Of a DNA stretch of 64,000 nucleotides, positions 7,820-31,968 are shown piece by piece. Source of the stretch: Candidatus Spongiisociaceae bacterium (lineage in GTDB: Bacteria > Actinomycetota > Acidimicrobiia > Spongiisociales > Spongiisociaceae). Made by a program: the position numbers and the translations under genes. The DNA lies in assembly GCA_965262915.1 (NCBI GenBank), contig OZ253564.1, positions 1,472,001-1,536,000 of the forward strand, written 5' to 3'. The number at the start of each line of letters is the position of its first letter. The first letter of the stretch is position 1. The notes beneath the pieces were generated by a model, which saw only the letters and a list, made by a program, of their open reading frames with translations, ran no database searches and was not told the origin of the DNA.

Positions 7820-8061
7820 TCTCTGCACTGGGCAACGGACTGCCACTCCGCAGGCGGGCAATCAGCGCCGCAGGAGCGATTCCGTAGGATGGCCCGCATC
7901 TCGCCTTGTCGGACCGGCCCGACAAGGCGCAGCGGCCAGAGCAAGCGACCGAGTGGAGTGCAGGGTACCGGCCGGTAGACCACAAGCGCCGGCGGGACAC
8001 GGAGGTTGCCAATGTCGTGGGTTGGTAGAGAAGTCGAACGAATCCGGCAGGAGACGAGTAC

Positions 8062-8685
8062 ATGGCAATGACGAATCCCATTCCCACCGACGGTCCGATC
8101 CCCGTCGGCGTCATCGCCGGGATCGACGAAACCGTCTTCTCTGAAGACGACAACATCACCATCACCTATGTCCTCGCTGGCGTTGTGTACCGCGACGCCC
8201 AAGCGGCCCGTCGGGCCTTCCAGCAACTTATCGCTGGCCGCAAGGGACCGTTTCACTGGCGGGAAGAAGGCCGCGAGCGCCGTGAGGAAGCAGTCACCCT
8301 CCTAGAAGAGCACGTTGTCGCTACCTACCTGCTTGCTCGACCAACTGGAATCCACCGCCCGCTAGAGGCGCGTCACGAACTTCTCGCCCATCTCGTAGCA
8401 GAACTCCTCAATGACGGAGTCGACCACGTCATCATCGAATCAGCACGGGTTCCAGCCAATGACGGTCGGGACCGCGATACGATCGTGGAATCATTCCGAG
8501 CCGACAGCGCCAACCGTACGTTCACTTACGACTGGCGCACTAAGACCGAGCCGCTGCTGTGGTACCCCGACGCGCTCGCCGGCGTCGCCCATGAATTCCT
8601 CGCCGATGGAAAAGCACACCACTTTCGACGACTTCAGAGAGCAGAAGTCGTCACCGAGATCCGCTACCCCCGTTCTGATCACTGA
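8062..8685 (+). CDS. DUF3800-like (RNase H-fold) protein
   Basis: IDET..YVLAGV, FHWREE, IIES..D..D, EPLLWYPDALAG pattern. AGGAG RBS. Confidence 0.6.
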   Translation: MAMTNPIPTDGPIPVGVIAGIDETVFSEDDNITITYVLAGVVYRDAQAARRAFQQLIAGRKGPFHWREEGRERREEAVTLLEEHVVATYLLARPTGIHRPLEARHELLAHLVAELLNDGVDHVIIESARVPANDGRDRDTIVESFRADSANRTFTYDWRTKTEPLLWYPDALAGVAHEFLADGKAHHFRRLQRAEVVTEIRYPRSDH

Positions 8686-8822
8686 AGTTCCTCTTTACCT
8701 TGGGTGGCTCTGATGTGTCAGGATCGGGGCTGGTCGCTCACAGCGGCCAGTAGGGCCTCACCGTTCGTTACCGGGTTGCTTGCCTTTAGGGGCGATCTGA
8801 TCCTAGGACCACCGGGGATGTG

Positions 8823-8850
8823 ATGTCCGATAATGAACATTATGTAAAGC
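8823..8850 (+). other. dif-like XerC/XerD recombination site A
   Basis: ATGTCCGATAA-TGAACA-TTATGTAAAGC: 11-6-11 architecture with a XerD-type arm TTATGT and a CCGATAA arm as in actinobacterial dif. Confidence 0.8.
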
Positions 8851-8997
8851 TACGGCTGCGGTGTTTCCCCAGGTAGATGACGGTTTCGGGGTAGGGCCGT
8901 CCGGGTCGTGCATAAACCGTCCCAGCCACGGTCGAATATGCGACAGTTAATACCGGTCGACGATGGTCGGCAGAGACCCGGCTGGTTGACGAGCTCC
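8823..8997. repeat. ~175-bp repeat containing the dif-like core; inverted copy 11702-11879, degenerate inverted copy ~19453-19549
   Basis: The reverse complement of 8823-8997 aligns almost base for base with 11702-11879. Blocks ATATTC..CGTGG.TGGG, GGTTTATGCACG and CCGAAACCG recur at 19490-19549. Confidence 0.9.
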
Positions 8998-9241
8998 CGG
9001 CGGGTACCGTTAACCCCCTATGAGCAGAGTCCGCCCCCCAGGGCGCCCACCACCCACATATCCCCCCGGCCGCTACTGCGCCACCGACAGCTGAACGGCG
9101 CGCCTATCCATCTACAACCCGACCGACCACTGCAACCTCCACACCCCCCTCCGACGCCGACCCGCACTGAGCCGCCGACGCTGGTGAGACCATTCAGGCG
9201 GGTAACCGCTGTCGGCGGCCGGCCGAGCCCCCAGCGGAAAG
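8998..9241. repeat. ~245-bp block with inverted copy at ~19072-19313
   Basis: For example GGTAACCGCTGTCGGCGGCCGGCCGAGCCCCCAGCGGAA and CACCACCCACATATCCCCCCGGCCGC occur reverse-complemented at 19072-19265. Confidence 0.88.
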
Positions 9242-9268
9242 GAGTGTCCGCTGCCTGTCACCCGGGCG

Positions 9269-9353
9269 AACAGCCAAAGTATCCGGTTCCCCCCAGCACG
9301 CCGTGGCGGCGAAACTCCTCGAAGAGGGTTTCGGGCGGAAACGCCCCAAACCC
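9269..9353 (+). repeat. ~85-bp structured repeat; copies at 13203-13283 (+) and ~16835-16915 (-)
   Basis: Shared ACAGCCA..GTA.CCG.TTC.C.CAGCACGCCGTGG..GGC...GGGTTTCGGG.GG.AA.ACCC/CGCCC, including hairpins. Confidence 0.82.
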
Positions 9354-9849
9354 TGTCTCCAGCCCGCCGGGGCGGGTACACGCCCCGGCATGGCCATGTT
9401 GGAAAGCTGCGGGAGGGGGGCCGGCGGCTATGGGACCAGAAGTTGCCCGAACCGGACTATTTCCTCGTTGAATTCGTCGAAATCGGCGGTGAGCGTAAGA
9501 GTCATACCGACAACTCGGGGGCCGTCATCAGTGTGTCCCTCGATGGCCTCATCGAGGGATGGAATAAAGCTGTGCCCGAACTCCCAGATCTCGTCGAGTA
9601 TGTGGGCGTTCGTGGTTGACAGCAGCTCAACGACACGTTCTGCGTCAGGGTCGACGCGAACAGCGCGGCAGCGCAATGTCCAGCGGGCGCTGTCCTCCCA
9701 GACCTGGGCGAGGCGGCGCGCAGCAGCGGCGATCTCGATCGGGTCTCCTGACACCTGTGGGAGGTAGTCGTTGACGATGGCCGTTGCTGTGCTCGTGTAC
9801 CCACTGAATTCGTGCATCCTGTCCTGTGCCCACGGGGCGAAATCGTTTA

Positions 9850-10678
9850 GGGCGTGTTCACCTAAAGTTACACTGATGTGATATCATTACGATATGACAA
9901 TAACACAAGAACAATACCAACTCATAGTAGACGTGTTCCCGAAACCCCGCGGTACCGTCAAGGTATCCAACCTCCAAGCCCTCAACGGCATCCTGTACGT
10001 ACTGGAGCACGGCTGCAAGTGGCGGGCGCTTCCCGAACGGTTCGGGAACTGGCACACCGTTTACATGCGGATGAGCCGCTGGGCGGCCAGCGGCGTCTTG
10101 GACCGGGTGTTCCAGCGTCTACAGCAGGAACAGCTCATCGACCTCGAAGTTCTGGGCCTGGACAGCACGTCGGTCAAGGTTCATCCCGACGGCTGTGGTG
10201 CTCTCCGAAAGCGGGGTCCCCAGGCCATCGGTCGCTCCCGGGGAGGGTTGAACACCAAGATCCACATGGTCGCGGCCAGCGCTTGTAGCGCCGTCTTATT
10301 CGCTCTTTCCCCAGGTCAGGACCATGATGCTCCCCATGGGCGGGAGCTCCTCAAAAAGATGGGCCCACGAAAAAAGGAGCAGGAAGGGGAGCAGCTAGAG
10401 CTGTTCCTGGTAGCGGACCGCGCCTATGAAGGGGACGAAACACGGCAACTGGCCGTCGCTCTGGGCTACACGCCGGTCATCCCACCCCGAAGCAACCGCC
10501 GCCACCCGTGGGACTACAACCGTCCGATATACAAGCGACGGAACGAGGTCGAACGGCTCTTCCGACGGCTCAAAGGCTACCGGCGTGTCTTCACCCGCTA
10601 CGACAAACTCGACGTGATGTTCCTAGCATTCATCACCCTCGCGCTCATACACGACACGCTCAGAAACGTAACACGCCC
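9850..10678 (+). mobile_element. IS5 family insertion sequence
   Basis: IRs GGGCGTGTT / AACACGCCC with a TA duplication (9848-49, 10679-80). Confidence 0.9.
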
Positions 10679-10706
10679 TAGGTTGATGTGGGTCACTTCG
10701 GCTTGA
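9894..10706 (+). CDS. IS5 family transposase
   Basis: NGILYVLEHGCKWRALPERFG, LDSTSVKVH, GRSRGGLNTKIH, ADRAY, YKRRNEVERLFRRLK, TRYDK motifs. Reads past the right IR. Confidence 0.95.
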   Translation: MTITQEQYQLIVDVFPKPRGTVKVSNLQALNGILYVLEHGCKWRALPERFGNWHTVYMRMSRWAASGVLDRVFQRLQQEQLIDLEVLGLDSTSVKVHPDGCGALRKRGPQAIGRSRGGLNTKIHMVAASACSAVLFALSPGQDHDAPHGRELLKKMGPRKKEQEGEQLELFLVADRAYEGDETRQLAVALGYTPVIPPRSNRRHPWDYNRPIYKRRNEVERLFRRLKGYRRVFTRYDKLDVMFLAFITLALIHDTLRNVTRPRLMWVTSA

Positions 10707-11851
10707 GCGAGCCGATACTCGATCTCGCGGCGTAGCGGTGCTCGACGATCCAGTTCTGCTTCGAGGACTGTTCCAAAGAGCCTGATTTCCCAGAGCGTGT
10801 CGCGTCGAAGCGCCACCATCAGCGCGTCGCCGGCGAGCTCCTCTAGGAGACGGTCGTGGCCATGTGCCTTCTGATGGAGAGCGAGGGCGTCTTGCACGAG
10901 GTATGCGAACTGCTGGCGCAAGGTGTCAACGATGTCCTCGGTGGCAGTAAACGAGAATGTCCAGACGTCGCCACTCTCGCGGAACGAATCTATGAACTCG
11001 AAAACGCGCGGCGTGTCGACGACGCCGGAGTAGTCGGCGTCGGGGTTGCTCCGCCACACACTCAACTGTGCAAGAACGTCGCTGTCGACGAAGACGTACG
11101 TGGGTACGCCCCGTGCTCGGGCTTCAAGAAATTCGAGGTTGGTGACGGACTTGTCGGTATCGGGGTCGACCGAGCCGTACCGCGCGCCGACAACCATCAC
11201 GAAGATATCGGCGTTCTCTCGGACGTTCCTCACGCTGTTGGTGACCGTCGTCTGGTTCGCGTCGATCGGGAACGAACCGTGCTCGGCCATCACGGCACGC
11301 CAACCGAGTCCCCCTATGAATTGGCGAAGCTGCGAGCGGAGATGGTTGAGGTCGTACATGGTCGAACTCACGAAGACATTTGGTGGTCGGTTCTTCACTG
11401 GCCACTCCGTTCAGTCGCAGGAGACGCCCTCGGGCACTTTAGGGCCGAATCCCGGATCACCACCCCGTCGGCGAGGACCCCGACGGGGAGCTGTGGCACT
11501 GACTTGTCCTGAGACGCTCGGCCGGCCTAACTCCCCCCTGAGCCCCGCCCAGCGGAGGGGTCCTCCGCTGGAGGGACTCAGGAGGTGGTAGGGAGGGGCG
11601 GCCTCTCCTGCCTCGCACCGAAAGGTGGCGCCGGGGGCCCCCACACCCAACGGATCCAGCGGCACCGGGGTCAGGAATCGATGCTGACCCCTCCGAACAT
11701 GCGGGAGCTTGTCTACTAGCCCGGTCTCCGCTGACCATCGTCGACCGGTATTAACCGTCGCATATTCGACCGTGGCTGGGGTGGTTTATGCACGACCTGG
11801 ACGGCCCTACCCCGAAACCGCCATCTACCTGGGGAAACACCGACGGGCGTG

Positions 11852-11879
11852 GCTTTACATAATATCTATTATCGGACAC
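11852..11879 (-). other. dif-like XerC/XerD recombination site B (inverted relative to A)
   Basis: Minus strand GTGTCCGATAA-TAGATA-TTATGTAAAGC. Arms nearly identical to site A, spacer different. Confidence 0.8.
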
Positions 11880-11936
11880 CGCTGCCCCTGACAATCCGGC
11901 CCCCGCTGCGGTTCGTCGGTGTGGTCCTCTCGGGGG

Positions 11937-12899
11937 TTAGCCCCGCTCCCAGCCCCGCTCCGTGTAGTACCAATCGCACGCAGGGCAGCGGCACTTATCG
12001 GCATGGATGAGATCAAGGCAGGCGTCGCATTCGCAGCCGTCGTTGCCCGACTGGTCATGGCCTGGGATCCCGCCGAGGGGGAACAGCCCCTCACGCTGTT
12101 TGCGCGGGACATGCCGGTTGAGTTGACACTGGTCGCATGCGCACACCGGCGGCGCGGGCAGCGTGTTATCGGGACTGTCGCCGTCCTCGGGTTTGGTTGG
12201 CACATAGCGGACTGAGATGGTCTTGATTTGGCTGGCCGATACGATCACTCGGTCTACATCCCAATCCTCTGCAGCCGTTATGTTGTCGCCGGGAGGGCGG
12301 ATCTTGACGGGGCGCCCAATTTGGATACTACGAGCGTCGTTCTCCTCGAGGTCGGTGCTGAAGGCGAAGAGCGGGCCGTAGAGGTAGGTCCCGTCCTTTA
12401 GGTCGAGACCGACATACACCCGATGGTGAGGGCGTTTAGTGAAAGCGAACCCCCATCCTGACAATTGTTCGATAGGCCCTTGCAGTTGCCTGGTTGCTAT
12501 GAACGTTGCGATTGTGGGACCAGGCCAGAATCTGATTTTGGAAGCGCGCTTACTGCTCCACGCTGGGGGGACAGCGATTACTGCGGCAAGGCCGGTTGCA
12601 GCGAGAAGCAGGGCGGCAGACCAGAGTGTGACCTCGGCGTAGTTGCTCTGGAAGTAGCCACTCGGATCACGGACAATCGCCCCGGCATCCGGTGTGATAG
12701 TTGGCAGTAGGTATCGGAGAATGGCGAATAGGCCGAGTATGACCCCGTTGACTGCGAGGCTGACCGACACGATCGTCACGGTCTCGCGGAGAAGGCTGTA
12801 TCTCCTCTCGGGGAGCCGCGTCTCCGTTCTGACGAGATAGACGAACCCAGGTGTCAGGAATGTGACGAAGATGGCAAGGCCAACGAGAGTCGTAGGCAT
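11937..12899 (-). CDS. DUF6338-like membrane protein with Cys-rich C-terminal tail
   Basis: MPTTLVGLAIFVTFLTPGF N-terminus, 3 TM segments, V.LDLKDGTYLYG..FS motif. Tail CACDQC..CECDAC..CRCPAC. Confidence 0.65.
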   Translation of the reverse strand: MPTTLVGLAIFVTFLTPGFVYLVRTETRLPERRYSLLRETVTIVSVSLAVNGVILGLFAILRYLLPTITPDAGAIVRDPSGYFQSNYAEVTLWSAALLLAATGLAAVIAVPPAWSSKRASKIRFWPGPTIATFIATRQLQGPIEQLSGWGFAFTKRPHHRVYVGLDLKDGTYLYGPLFAFSTDLEENDARSIQIGRPVKIRPPGDNITAAEDWDVDRVIVSASQIKTISVRYVPTKPEDGDSPDNTLPAPPVCACDQCQLNRHVPRKQREGLFPLGGIPGHDQSGNDGCECDACLDLIHADKCRCPACDWYYTERGWERG

Positions 12900-12936
12900 T
12901 ACGAGCGGCTATCCGAAGGTGGCAGCGAGGACGAAG

Positions 12937-13110
12937 TTAGCCTTTGGGCGGCGGCTTCGGGTCTGCATTACTGCTTGACGAGGCGGCCGGGGCGTTCGGG
13001 GGCTGCTGTTGACCTCGGTCGGTTACCCCTCGGACCCGAACCTGTCTTGTCTGCGATCCGCCATCTTCACGCTGCACGCGCCATCGGCCGTGTTCCTTCT
13101 TGGCTGGCAT
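12937..13110 (-). CDS. Small 57-aa Pro-rich ORF upstream of the DUF6338 gene
   Basis: Manual translation MPAKKEHGRWRVQREDGGSQTRQVRVRGVTDRGQQQPPNAPAASSSSNADPKPPPKG*. Stops 37 bp before the DUF6338 start. Confidence 0.4.
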   Translation of the reverse strand: MPAKKEHGRWRVQREDGGSQTRQVRVRGVTDRGQQQPPNAPAASSSSNADPKPPPKG

Positions 13111-13235
13111 AGCCCTAAAGATTACCAGTTCCCCCGGGTACGCTCGACACGGGCACCGAGGCCGGATACCTCCGGTCCGCTCCTCCGCTGCCCACGACGG
13201 TCAACAGCCAAGTAACCGGTTCCCCCCAGCACGCC

Positions 13236-13775
13236 GTGGGCGGCGAAACCCTCGGGGTTTCGGGAGGGAACACCCCCAAACCCGCCTGTCCCCGACCGAC
13301 GCGAATCAGGTGGAAAGTGGTGCACGCCGCGGTAGGCGACGTGATCGCGGAGTGGGTTCGTATGGTCCGCTCCGGCCAGACGAAGCCCAGACTCGTCGAA
13401 TTCAGCACTCGCGCTGTGGCCTCAACGGATCTGCTTGAGCAGGTCCGGGCTCTGAATGCGGACAACAGAGTTGTTCCGGCCGCCCCGATCGTATTGGCTG
13501 GAGTTGCTCTTGAGATCGCACTTCGGTCCGCGGTCGAGGAACTCGATCTCACCGTCGAGGGACGGGGAAGCATCGATGCTTATGCCAGGGCGCTCCGCCA
13601 GGTCGATGTGCTGAACAGGCAGGACATGAAAGATGTCACGCAGATGGCGGGCCTTCGCAACGACGCCGCGCATGGAGTCCACGAGACACTCAGCCGTAAG
13701 GGAGCGAGCTTGATGGAACAGCAAGCGAACCTCTTCCTCGCCCGGCTAGATCAGGCCGTCCAGCAGTCGAACTGA
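13236..13775 (+). pseudogene. HEPN/DUF4145-like protein, probably 5'-truncated
   Basis: LAGVALEIALR...LRNDAAHG (Rx4H). The ORF start lies inside the 13203-13283 repeat. Confidence 0.65.
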
Positions 13776-13950
13776 AACCCAAGCCGTCGCCCAACCAGAA
13801 CCTCAAACGAGGCTGAGTTCGGGTGCTGTTCGCTGCTGGGGGCAACGGAGGACCCCTCCGCTGGAGGCGCTCAGGCGCTGTGGCTGTGGGTGTTGGGCCA
13901 GCCCAGGTCGGAGGGCGTTGTCACATGGATACTCGGCGGCGGTGGCACCG

Positions 13951-15048
13951 CTAAGGCCGTATTGGACGCTCCTCTCCCTTGATCGTGAGTTTGATCTTGT
14001 CTGCAAACTGCCTCTTGTCCCCGGTCACACGAACCGCTCTCTTGGCTTGGACTCTTAAGCTTCCCGTTACCCCGACGTACTCGGCTTCGTCCAGGATCAC
14101 ACGGGCGGCCTTTGCCAAAGACCGTGCGGGTTGGGGGCCAGTCATTCCCCTGAACGCATCGGTTCCTACAGCAGCCTCGAAGTACCGCCACTTCCCAAAG
14201 GTACCGCGGTTCTCTGTCAGCACATCCCGTATGGTTGCGAAGTCTGCTTCGATCCGATCTCGGCTCTCCCGTGGGAGGTGGTCAAATAGATTCAGCAGGT
14301 CGTGGATCTTTCTCGCTTCATCGGTACAAGTTAGTGAGATGGCCTTCAGCGCGAGCTCGCACGCGAAGGCGGCGATCATCCCGTTCCCTAGCAGCAAGCC
14401 AGCTGTCGCAAGAAGTTCTTGCTCTCGGTGCCGCGGGTTCTGGCTCAGGGCATGCGCATCGATCTGGAACGAGACCGACCCATCGGCGTTGACTCGGTAA
14501 TCGCGAAAGTCCGCGATCGAGACCCTCTCATGGTCGGTGTTACGGGATACTCCGTCGAGGAGAGCTCGCGCCTGGAGGAAGAACAAACCTGGTGAACCTG
14601 CGGGGAAGTCACGGCGGGTGAGCTTTCCCCTAGGGCTTTTGCTGCGGGCAACCCGGTCCAGCAGCTCCTGCTTCGACAACCTGTGGAGCTTAGGAAAAAC
14701 CTTTTGAGCGAACGGACCGTCACCGTACTTGGGTTGATGTCCCAACATCATGTTCAACGCGTTGCTGAAGGACTCCTCGGATATCCTCTTTGCCTCTGCC
14801 GCTGCAGCGCTGCCTTCCAGTATCTCGCCACAGACGATGCACTTTATGCCGGTGACAGCACGCTCCGGGTCGGTTCTTCCCCTGAGGACTCCCCAGCACC
14901 GCTTGCAGCGTCCCGTGGCATCGAACTCTGAGAAGGGGGGCTGGCCACCGATGACACCGAGCGAGACGGTTGTGGCGTCCATGTCCCAGTCCCACTCAAT
15001 GGGAATCGTCTGTTTGGTTCTCTCATTCGGTTCGTTCATGTCGATCAA
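13951..15048 (-). CDS. HEPN-like domain protein with N-terminal CxxC pairs
   Basis: CKRC..CIVC, then AFACELALKA...HDLLNLFDHL...FGKWRYFE. Confidence 0.6.
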   Translation of the reverse strand: MIDMNEPNERTKQTIPIEWDWDMDATTVSLGVIGGQPPFSEFDATGRCKRCWGVLRGRTDPERAVTGIKCIVCGEILEGSAAAAEAKRISEESFSNALNMMLGHQPKYGDGPFAQKVFPKLHRLSKQELLDRVARSKSPRGKLTRRDFPAGSPGLFFLQARALLDGVSRNTDHERVSIADFRDYRVNADGSVSFQIDAHALSQNPRHREQELLATAGLLLGNGMIAAFACELALKAISLTCTDEARKIHDLLNLFDHLPRESRDRIEADFATIRDVLTENRGTFGKWRYFEAAVGTDAFRGMTGPQPARSLAKAARVILDEAEYVGVTGSLRVQAKRAVRVTGDKRQFADKIKLTIKGEERPIRP

Positions 15049-18805: not shown

Positions 18806-19577
18806 CACACCTCTCTGCCTACCTACGCCGGCTAGACCAGCACCCCGTCAACGCCTCGGCTGCTCAAGCTCTTCGAGGGCCAACGTGGCTATGAAAACAT
18901 CGGGGGAGGAACCCTGTACGCAGCACAGGGACGTGGGTGAAATACTGTCAGTTCGGTCCCGCTACAACGAACGCCCACGGTCGAGGAACATCGTGAGCGT
19001 GCGGCTCCCGGCGGGGCTTCTTCTCTGGAGTCTGTCCACGAGAGCACTCTCGCGGACTCGATTTCTCTCCCTTCCGCTGGGGGCTCGGCCGGCCGCCGAC
19101 AGCGGTTACCGGTCCGGTGGTCTCACTAGCCTTAGCGGTTCCGTTTGGGTGGGTGTCGGTTGGGGGAGTGGAGGCGGCAGTGGTCGGCCGGGTTGTAGAT
19201 GGATAGGCGTGCTGTGCAGCTGTCGGTGGCGCAGCGGCGGCCGGGGGGATATGTGGGTGGTGGTCGGCCTTTGGGGGGTAGGACTCTGGTCATAGGGGGT
19301 TGACGGTACCCGGGAGCGGTTTCCGCTGACGGCCGGCGGCATCGGAGTATCCCTCCGTCGGGGGGCTGAGGGATCAGCCGGGCGGGCTGTTGGGGAGCTT
19401 CCGTCTCAGGTCTGCGCCGGGTGACTCGGGCGTTAGGGAGCGGGGGAACGGAGAGTCTGTAGCCTATCGTTGACTAGCGCTGTGTGGTGTATATTCAAAC
19501 GTGGGTGGGCGGGTTTATGCACGGGGCTGGCCGGCTGTTGCCGAAACCGGCTTTTACACCAACGCGATAATATAACG

Positions 19578-20449: not shown

Positions 20450-22859
<2,410 letters not shown>

Positions 22860-31167: not shown

Positions 31168-31968
31168 GTAGGGTCCGGGGCGCCCCTCCTGCTTTTCAGC
31201 TGGTGGGTTTCCCCGGCCCGCCCTCCGAACCGGACGTGCAACTTCGGGTGCATCCGGCTCTCCATGTGTTCATGCCACTGGTGGTTCAGCCTGTGTCTGC
31301 ATCACACGTACCCGCCGCCCAGCCTCTCCGAGGTCAGGCCACGGTGCGCCGGTATTCACCAGCGACCTCCGCGATCAGCAGTTCGGCTACCAACACACTG
31401 GACCCCTTCGCCATGTGACCGGCTTTCCCGGCCTCGGACTACTACGGGTCCTCCGCCCCATCCCACCGGCATCAGCCGGCAACAAGCCTTCCCGCCGACC
31501 GACAAGACGCCGGCCGGTGAGGGCACCGGGGGGATGGTTCCCACGTTCACTTTCCAACCGTTCGACAGGGTCGGCGCCCAGCTATGCCCCTGCAACATCG
31601 CCACGGCTACGCCGCAGGCCCACACCGTGGCCTCCCGGTCGGCGATATCAACCGACCAAAGAGTCACCGCACACAACAATTGCTGTGCGAGTGTGCGCTG
31701 CTACGCGGCCCTGATCCGCCAGGTTCGAGCCGCTGGGTTGTCTTGAGGAGCTTTCAGACGCTGGTTCCTCACGTACGCCTTTCTGTCTTGCTTGCCGGAC
31801 CCGGACCATCTGGCAGTACTGGTCCGTCCCATCGTTGTCAGGGCTGCTTCCCACCCAAACCCCCCGTTCCACAGGGTCCAGGCTGCCCTCAGCTTCACGC
31901 GCACGCTGCAACGAGCACGCAGCGGTGTCCTTTCACCACCGCACGGTTAGAAACGCCTCGTGGCGCTC
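31168..31968 (-). ncRNA. Group II intron lacking its RT ORF (~800 nt)
   Basis: 5' end GAGCGCCACGAGGCG; domain V GAGCCGGATGCACCCGAAGTTGCACGTCCGGTTC; domain VI ending ..CCCGGACCCTAC. Only VNTGAPWPDLGEA and ..HMESRM ORF stubs remain. Confidence 0.85.

Follow-up and report, generated by a model that had tools for sequence, protein, structure and literature searches.

The window described here is the whole analysed stretch of 64,000 nucleotides (G000:C1:1,472,001-1,536,000), taken from a source genome, G000, that consists of a single contig of 5,055,038 bp with 64.4% G+C. Between positions 8823 and 11879 it holds two short sites that resemble the chromosomal recombination site dif, each joined to a long conserved flank, and between them lies a gene of the DUF4062 family. 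An earlier note on this DNA had described two inverted 28-bp dif-like sites of 11-6-11 layout, with differing spacers and XerD-type arms directed inward, and had attached to each about 150 nt of conserved inner sequence. Direct reading bears this out: both sites have the 11-6-11 layout and are mutually inverted, with their TTATGTAAAGC (XerD-type) arms pointing inward. That the sites enclose a DUF4062 gene was also confirmed (PF13271), with the addition that this gene is split by an insertion sequence (IS) of 831 bp. The features of the locus are as follows, in window coordinates.

8823-8850, plus strand: left dif-like core, ATGTCCGATAA-TGAACA-TTATGTAAAGC, from direct reading, with 20/20 arm positions in the genome scan; XerC-type arm 8823-8833, spacer 8834-8839, XerD-type arm 8840-8850
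8851-9000, plus strand: left conserved arm on the XerD side, part of the inverted repeat (nhmmer E 4.6e-55), with a box, GTTTCCCCAGGTAGA, at 8863-8877
9428-9846, minus strand: 3' part of the DUF4062 gene, with an open reading frame (ORF) at 9428-9817; homologous to intact copies over 9383-9849 and severed by the IS
9847-10677, plus strand: IS of the IS4/IS5 family, 831 bp, with a transposase ORF from 9894 (Pfam DUF4096, DDE_Tnp_1, DDE_Tnp_1_2)
10678-11398, minus strand: 5' part of the DUF4062 gene (Pfam PF13271, E 1.2e-16)
11549-11570, plus strand: palindrome CCAGCGGAGGGGTCCTCCGCTG, 5' of the DUF4062 gene (repeat search, I3)
11702-11851, minus strand: right conserved arm on the XerD side, part of the inverted repeat (nhmmer E 8.4e-55), with the box at 11824-11838
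11852-11879, minus strand: right dif-like core, GTGTCCGATAA-TAGATA-TTATGTAAAGC, from direct reading and the genome scan

The long flanks were recovered by the repeat search as inverted-repeat arms of 141 nt (8859-8999 and 11702-11842) that are 92% complementary, together with a second inverted-repeat pair around the cores (8814-8854 and 11848-11888), and in a blastn comparison the two units are about 90% identical to each other across 177 nt. A whole unit measures about 180-190 nt and carries the dif-like core at one end. The assembly was checked against public data, namely Logan contigs from 4 of 15 listed sequencing runs (runs are labelled X1, X5 and X9 below; X5 is possibly the sample of origin). 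The outer junctions of both sites are covered without differences by contigs of X5 (7962-9093 and 11390-14000) and X9 (7962-8910 and 11813-12528), and joints that lack the IS are found at 9846>10678 in X5 and X9 and at 9847>10679 in X1. Because contigs span the outer junctions and some of them are free of the IS, the window pair does exist, and the IS was added later and is polymorphic; the concern of the earlier note that the duplication might be an assembly artefact is thereby answered.

The unit as a multi-copy family

Mapping of the unit across the genome, which the earlier note had proposed, placed the window pair in a multi-copy family. The profile search returned 12 strong unit matches in G000 (E 3e-30 or better), plus partial copies. 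The positions of the strong matches are approximate.

G000 308,100, plus strand: unit match
G000 515,804, plus strand: unit match
G000 540,972, plus strand: unit match, core-less
G000 1,260,717, minus strand: unit match
G000 1,262,051, plus strand: unit match
G000 1,386,328, minus strand: unit match
G000 1,426,598, minus strand: unit match
G000 1,427,943, plus strand: unit match
G000 1,480,817, plus strand: unit match, left unit of the window
G000 1,483,702, minus strand: unit match, right unit of the window
G000 2,850,859, minus strand: unit match
G000 2,894,173, minus strand: unit match

In total, G000 contains 10 full units, one hybrid site that is described below, one partial site and several core-less copies. 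A scan for the two arms on both strands of the whole 5.06-Mb genome returned 19 places that match the arms at 15 or more of 20 positions, of which 15 were judged to be family members and 4 marginal. We call unit-type cores class 2, as opposed to dif-type sites; in the arm scan the conserved flank accompanies every class-2 core in G000. Every copy has its core at one end of the repeat: outside the XerC arm all copies diverge within 0-40 nt, and on the other side homology continues for 120-900 nt. Identical spacers (TAGATA, CAGACA, AAGACA) recur at several sites. The homology on the flank side reaches past the unit into further features, which in the window are the following.

9001-9232, plus strand: 'segment 2', a 232-nt non-coding block (blastn against the genome and comparison of copies)
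9232-9253, plus strand: hairpin CAGCGGAAAGGAGTGTCCGCTG, closing segment 2
9277-9358, plus strand: post-hairpin repeat (repeat families D2 and D5), with a second copy at 13210-13287; it follows the hairpin in other copies too
19456-19557, minus strand: core-less partial unit (model positions 60-161; nhmmer E 1.2e-14), then segment 2 at about 19067-19312

Segment 2 comes after the unit in most copies, with an insert of 70-120 nt between the two in some of them, and about 12 copies of it are present in G000, several without a core. In six long copies it extends to about 510-740 nt and ends with a hairpin, CAGCGGA..TCCGCTG. The conserved block beyond the core, on one side only, amounts to 500-900 nt and closes with a hairpin. 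The partial unit at 19456-19557 is the third, core-less copy that the earlier note had announced; its presence was confirmed, but the neighbouring ORF, which had been called RAMP-like, has no Pfam match at E up to 0.1. Hairpins of the family CAGCGGA-N5-12-TCCGCTG number 87 relaxed copies in G000, 12 of them within 1.4-1.5 Mb, and the members in the window (at 9232, 11550, 13843 and 16930) are intergenic in the island. Such a hairpin may act as a terminator, or it may be another type of boundary between cassettes.

Conservation within the unit was followed in an alignment of 18 copies, 10 from G000 and 8 from G001, G002, G005 and G006 (here and below, G001, G002, G005-G008 and G023 are related genomes). 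Invariant columns are concentrated in three places, namely the XerC arm (TGTCC-A--A), portions of the XerD arm, and the box, a motif GT..C.CCAGGTAGA that lies about 13 nt beyond the XerD arm, while the spacers are variable; the conserved arm is 120-175 nt long in this alignment. In the window the 15-nt box is found twice in exact form (0.08 occurrences expected), and G000 as a whole has it at 10 places, nine of them beside a core and the tenth in the core-less copy at 540,973; with one mismatch, it stands beside three further cores in G000. As judged from these columns, the pattern of conservation is that of protein-binding DNA, with putative tyrosine-recombinase arms and a second conserved site four helical turns away.

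Other functions of the conserved DNA were considered and set aside. An RNA gene or riboswitch in the flank was rejected, with nothing from Rfam at the gathering threshold in the unit region and chance-level matches at E up to 10, and RNAalifold predicts no consensus pairs across the 18 copies. A small protein encoded in the unit was rejected as well: stops and frame shifts vary, and no frame is open across the copies. A sigma-70 scan for promoters gave no sites in the window between 8600 and 12100. About 22 near-matches in G000, GTTTCCCCGCGTAGA, were rejected as relatives of the box; all are preceded by one common 45-nt sequence and one lies inside an ISL3 transposase ORF. They form a repeat of more than 20 copies that have GGTCCCAGTTGGGTTTCCCCGCGTAGA in common (for example at G000 306,120 and 312,725), and the likeness of this repeat to the box, at 13/15 positions, looks like chance.

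Outside G000 the family is narrowly distributed. The core-plus-box pattern was found in 5 of 401 genomes of the order, all of one genus, with 10 sites in G000, 3 in G001, 2 in G005 and one each in G006 and G002, and in 0 of 393 genomes of other genera. A scan of species representatives gave 16 loci, seven of them true units and the remaining nine chance matches; all seven are in four metagenome-assembled genomes (MAGs; Acidimicrobiia, Candidatus Spongiisociaceae, 'bacterium APA_bin_98'). The scan of metagenome contigs gave 16 loci as well, of which five are true units; these are all the G001 sequences, with the same scores as the G001 copies. A collection of 72,556 plasmid records contains no match to the unit, nor does the phage collection.

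Likeness to chromosomal dif

Of the 29 genomes of the taxonomic family, 23 gave a match in the dif pattern search, mostly as a single site; G000 has seven matches. The family consensus, (A/G)TGTCC(C/T)ATAAT-NCAYG-TTATGTAAAG, can also be written ATGTCCCATAA-TGCACG-TTATGTAAAG, the whole site being ATGTCCCATAATGCACGTTATGTAAAG. The minus strand of G000 carries the exact consensus at 2,308,073-2,308,099, on the left margin of a plateau in the cumulative GC skew (2.30-2.88 Mb, with the maximum at 2,854,677). Class-2 cores have a G where this dif has a C in the XerC-type arm and have a different spacer (NNNACA), and their XerD-type arm is either the dif arm or the variant TTATGACAAC. The cores of the window have the XerD arm in common with the dif consensus and an XerC arm that is one base off. 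The dif-like nature of the sites, as first proposed, stands, and genes for XerC-like and XerD-like proteins are present in the genome. In the reading preferred below, the core is derived from the chromosome's own dif.

The XerC-like and XerD-like proteins, of 307 aa each and encoded at G000 2,013,380-2,014,303 and 2,402,664-2,403,587, score above the NCBIfam cut-off for a tyrosine-recombinase subfamily, and two more Xer-like genes, of 332 aa (1,430,691-1,431,686) and 338 aa, fall below that subfamily cut-off. In G002 and G006 units are present and the extra Xer-like recombinase is represented only by distant relatives that are 31-37% identical. It is quite probable that XerC/D or an Xer-like enzyme acts on the cores, which are predicted recombination sites.

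Three further dif-type sites are found in G000, at 1,446,669, 2,850,964 and 4,016,099. The one at 2,850,964 has the outer flank, XerC arm and spacer of the dif type and a class-2 flank beyond the XerD arm. It is a hybrid of the kind that would arise from a crossover in the core, although it may also represent an ancestral form.

Several side observations concern the same region. The dif consensus site and the hybrid site (which extends to 2,850,989) are on the same strand, 543 kb apart, at opposite edges of the GC-skew plateau; a very large element or rearrangements may separate them. The XerD-like gene (G000 2,402,664-2,403,587) lies inside the plateau, and a truncated second copy of it (234 aa, G000 2,405,550-2,406,254) is located 2 kb from the full copy. 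A motif, TGTCCGATCCC..CAAGTTGGCGAAATCC, or its reverse complement is found 40-80 nt from dif in several of the genomes G000, G001, G002, G007, G008, G023, G005 and G006, and may mark the ends of a small element that targets dif.

Arrangements around single genes and their explanation

Units frame single genes in three ways. The window pair around the DUF4062 gene is inverted with XerD arms inward. Two pairs, 1,260,882/1,262,060 and 1,426,773/1,427,951, surround a DUF4352 gene and are inverted with XerC arms inward; this module occurs twice as part of a 2776-bp duplication (98.7% identity) that reaches beyond both sites. A direct pair encloses one unannotated ORF at G000 514,425/515,813 and also in G001, its left site consisting of the core and about 40 nt of flank in G000 and of the core alone in G001. 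Similar geometries are described in the accessible part of PMC13141974 for the dif modules of Acinetobacter Rep_3/OrfX plasmids, which have 28-bp pdif sites in inverted pairs (C and D modules) and in alternating arrays, with rearrangement between like spacers. The geometry of the window pair is that of a D-type dif module.

Both TrwC relaxase-helicase-primase genes of G000 have one or two units 0.5-1.3 kb downstream, and the region of 1.22-1.50 Mb, which includes the window, holds 11 copies of the unit or segment 2, along with numerous IS and tyrosine recombinases. A single unit of G005 and of G006 occupies a syntenic chromosomal spot between a DUF169 gene and an M81 peptidase gene. The sites of the family lie where conserved non-coding blocks meet variable accessory genes.

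The cargo of the window pair is found elsewhere, too. The segment made up of window positions 9383-9849 and 10678-11570 recurs in G000 at 302.7 kb (91% identical) and in G001 (87%), where the DUF4062 gene is intact (G000 302,771-303,940, 389 aa; G001, 383 aa). The right end of this homology is the hairpin at 11549-11570, and the left end lies about 125 nt beyond a hairpin. The second G000 copy is followed by fragments of segment 2/3, and a stretch of 4.2 kb that contains ISL3 copies separates it from the unit at 308,106. PADLOC and NCBIfam, searched for a defence annotation of the cargo, gave no matches among 10 proteins.

We give a probability of about 0.45 to the reading that the window pair belongs to a lineage-restricted family of composite Xer-type sites that reside in islands of conjugative elements and undergo recombination by the host XerC/XerD. 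Host XerC and XerD would bind the two arms of the core, the long arm on the XerD side would serve as an accessory or architectural region, which is the most likely role of this putative binding DNA, and recombination between sites would join, invert or exchange the intervening DNA in the way of the Acinetobacter dif modules. The IS would have inserted into the DUF4062 gene after the D-type arrangement had formed. The present mosaic could have been made largely by homologous recombination between units and by IS activity. That the window pair itself moves as a module is doubtful. A broader proposal is that the sponge Acidimicrobiia of the Ca. Spongiisociaceae type run an Xer-dependent cassette system of their own on conjugative elements, in which a composite site of 180 nt would allow the insertion, inversion and exchange of single genes between integrative and conjugative elements (ICEs) and the chromosome by the host XerC/XerD, and which would be an invention independent of that in Acinetobacter, in another phylum and equipped with a new kind of accessory arm; we consider it unlikely. 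The earlier note had already suggested such a cassette system, and the dif-like sites and their three arrangements around single genes speak for it, but there is no alternating array, the cargo occurs without units, and breakpoints fall in the flank. Its other suggestion, stacked Xer-exploiting elements, receives some backing from the hybrid site at 2,850,964 and from the units downstream of both TrwC genes.

A number of observations weigh against recombination of the pair by XerC/XerD. Three of the six spacer positions are not the same in the left and right sites, and the profile and arm scans of G000 found isolated pairs and single sites and no arrays of alternating sites. In cer and psi the accessory DNA is on the XerC side, and the arm of the units is on the XerD side. 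The homology of the cargo stops about 530 nt (left) and about 310 nt (right) inside the window cores, and no unit lies within about 1 kb of the recurring cargo in G001 or within 4 kb of the second copy in G000, the nearest being 4-7 kb away; this comparison of cargo, of the sort that the earlier note had called for, speaks against a simple cassette. The 2776-bp duplication ends at +165, the distal end of the unit, and not in the core. In G005 the DUF169 gene, the core and about 75 nt of flank have been duplicated into a unit of another flank subtype. The unit at G000 2,894,319 adjoins a gene for a helix-turn-helix (HTH) protein that breaks off after residue 76, at a distance of 16 nt from the XerC arm; this fragment (G000 2,894,337-2,894,564, residues 1-76) is 83% identical to the gene at 1,431,736-1,432,224, and the intact HTH gene has no dif-like sequence at the point of truncation. 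The search for inversion or excision, likewise proposed earlier, yielded no trustworthy joint in the public contigs of the four runs, and no empty site was obtained in relatives.

Candidate joints at 8833>9076, 8887>13204 and 8915/11774 were not counted, having short sides (26-60 nt) or a paralogue-like sequence; the sequence of the opposite-strand joint 8915/11774 looks like that of a paralogue lacking 11 nt, a deletion also found in other copies. Loose contig ends at 11878 and 11702 belong to unit copies in contexts absent from G000, which may be paralogues in other strains. As to the outer surroundings of the pair, the gene on the left flank has homologues in G001 and G007, with homology that breaks off in a short dispersed repeat some 75 nt away from the core, and on the right flank there is no orthologue that adjoins a unit.

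The units could instead be the decayed attachment-site ends of integrative elements with an Xer-like recombinase of their own, the window pair being two head-to-head remnants with a gene between them by chance and not a cassette. Such an element, E1, comprises the core, the flank, segment 2, two ORFs, the 332-aa recombinase and the HTH gene. The full order (segment 2, the two ORFs, the recombinase gene and the HTH gene) is indeed present on the flank side of the site at G000 1,427,951, and a degraded collinear copy with the last 70-86 residues of the recombinase accompanies the hybrid site at 2,850,964, again on its flank side. The hairpin-terminated conserved block on one side only, the several core-less copies among the approximately 12 of segment 2 and the position of the core at the repeat edge in every copy are consistent with element ends. 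However, only 2 of about 12 units have the recombinase nearby, units occur in G002 and G006 without a close homologue of it, the homologue in G005 is broken and far from the units, and the arm scan of G000 found no partner junction, that is, a core without flank. The arms of the core are moreover unlike each other and similar to host dif, and therefore a XerC/XerD pair fits better than a single recombinase. We consider it unlikely that E1 accounts for the window pair. It is also conceivable that the unit is a multimer-resolution site, similar to cer and psi, of a family of conjugative plasmids or ICEs, which would act only on direct repeats in a dimer and whose chromosomal copies and inverted pairs would be debris left by repeated integration, IS activity and homologous recombination, without a part in gene movement. 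Its form, in which about 150 nt of conserved DNA adjoin a dif-like core, and its fixed place just downstream of both TrwC relaxase-primase genes agree with this, as does the action of psi-type sites in direct repeat only, reported in the accessible part of the psi preprint. Duplication breakpoints in the flank are expected from homologous recombination, and G000 is crowded with IS. Yet single genes are framed in three arrangements and in two species, the unit of G005 and G006 is syntenic on the chromosome with no relaxase within 10 kb, and none of the 72,556 plasmid records matched. The position of the arm on the XerD side also differs from that in cer, where it is on the XerC side. This explanation seems quite improbable to us.

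Least of all do the units look like terminal inverted repeats of a non-autonomous transposon with its transposase encoded elsewhere, a reading that we hold to be highly improbable. A 3-kb segment bounded by a 187-nt inverted repeat, many copies with a sharp outer boundary each, and one unit that adjoins a truncated gene without a dif-like target could be taken for it. The tips, however, copy host dif, and no target-site duplication is found beside either of them, which sets the pair apart from DDE transposons and miniature inverted-repeat transposable elements (MITEs); most units are single, or are paired with the flank outward or in direct orientation, and the only transposase inside is that of an independent IS, which has ends of its own and is missing from some contigs. 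The preferred reading remains that of composite sites recombined by the host XerC/XerD.

Known Xer systems and further features of the window

The window sites are best compared with three known systems. Like the Acinetobacter dif modules, they are 28-bp 11-6-11 sites resembling host dif, with spacers that differ between sites and are identical in some. The pairs of Acinetobacter are inversely oriented with XerC or XerD arms inward, and direct ('CD') pairs are also described in what is accessible of PMC13141974, so that the arrangements found in G000 have counterparts there. Unlike those modules, the sites described here are chromosomal, in a MAG lineage of the Acidimicrobiia type and in islands with TrwC relaxases, they form no alternating arrays that share sites, and any movement of theirs as modules is putative. 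Each site also has at least 150 nt of conserved DNA on the XerD side, a feature that the accessible descriptions of pdif sites in PMC13141974 do not include.

The cer and psi sites are resolved by XerCD with PepA, ArgR or ArcA, which bind the accessory DNA of about 150-200 bp. Like cer and psi, the unit combines a dif-like core with a conserved region of accessory size and, going by the accessible descriptions of those sites, is tied to the backbone of a mobile replicon. It differs from them by the inverted pairs, by the side of the arm and by the lack of similarity to known plasmids; recombination at cer and psi is confined to direct repeats within one molecule, with one site per replicon, according to the accessible part of the psi preprint. 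With the integrative mobile elements exploiting Xer (IMEX), such as CTX, TLC and the gonococcal genetic island, the family shares mobile DNA with a dif-like site, and one hybrid between dif and an element site is present in G000. The gonococcal genetic island carries a relaxase, a feature comparable to the TrwC genes near the units. IMEX are located at the chromosomal dif, between direct repeats, whereas the window pair, at 1.48 Mb, consists of inverted sites and is some 0.8 Mb distant from the dif consensus site at 2,308,073. Because the site form and the paired geometry are present, the arrays and the plasmid type are not, and mobility is putative, the window sites fall outside all three systems (dif modules, cer/psi and IMEX) and are a related variant. 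The literature that we found on gene shuffling between Xer sites describes, in its accessible parts, Acinetobacter only, and we found no relevant literature on IMEX with Xer/dif in Actinobacteria.

If the preferred reading is true, a second, unrelated lineage would have hijacked dimer resolution for gene exchange, which would make this a general strategy. The conserved arm with its invariant box would offer a handle for finding the accessory factor, and the site family would mark the accessory, mobile part of the genomes of these uncultured symbionts.

Among the minor features of the window, a repeat of about 70 nt at 8689-8756, just 3' of the gene on the left flank, has many copies in G000, G001, G002, G005, G006 and G007 with about 80% identity. 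Rfam places two further elements in the window, both above the gathering score.

22447-22563, minus strand: ALIL pseudoknot (106 bits)
31168-31262, minus strand: group II intron domain (41.5 bits)

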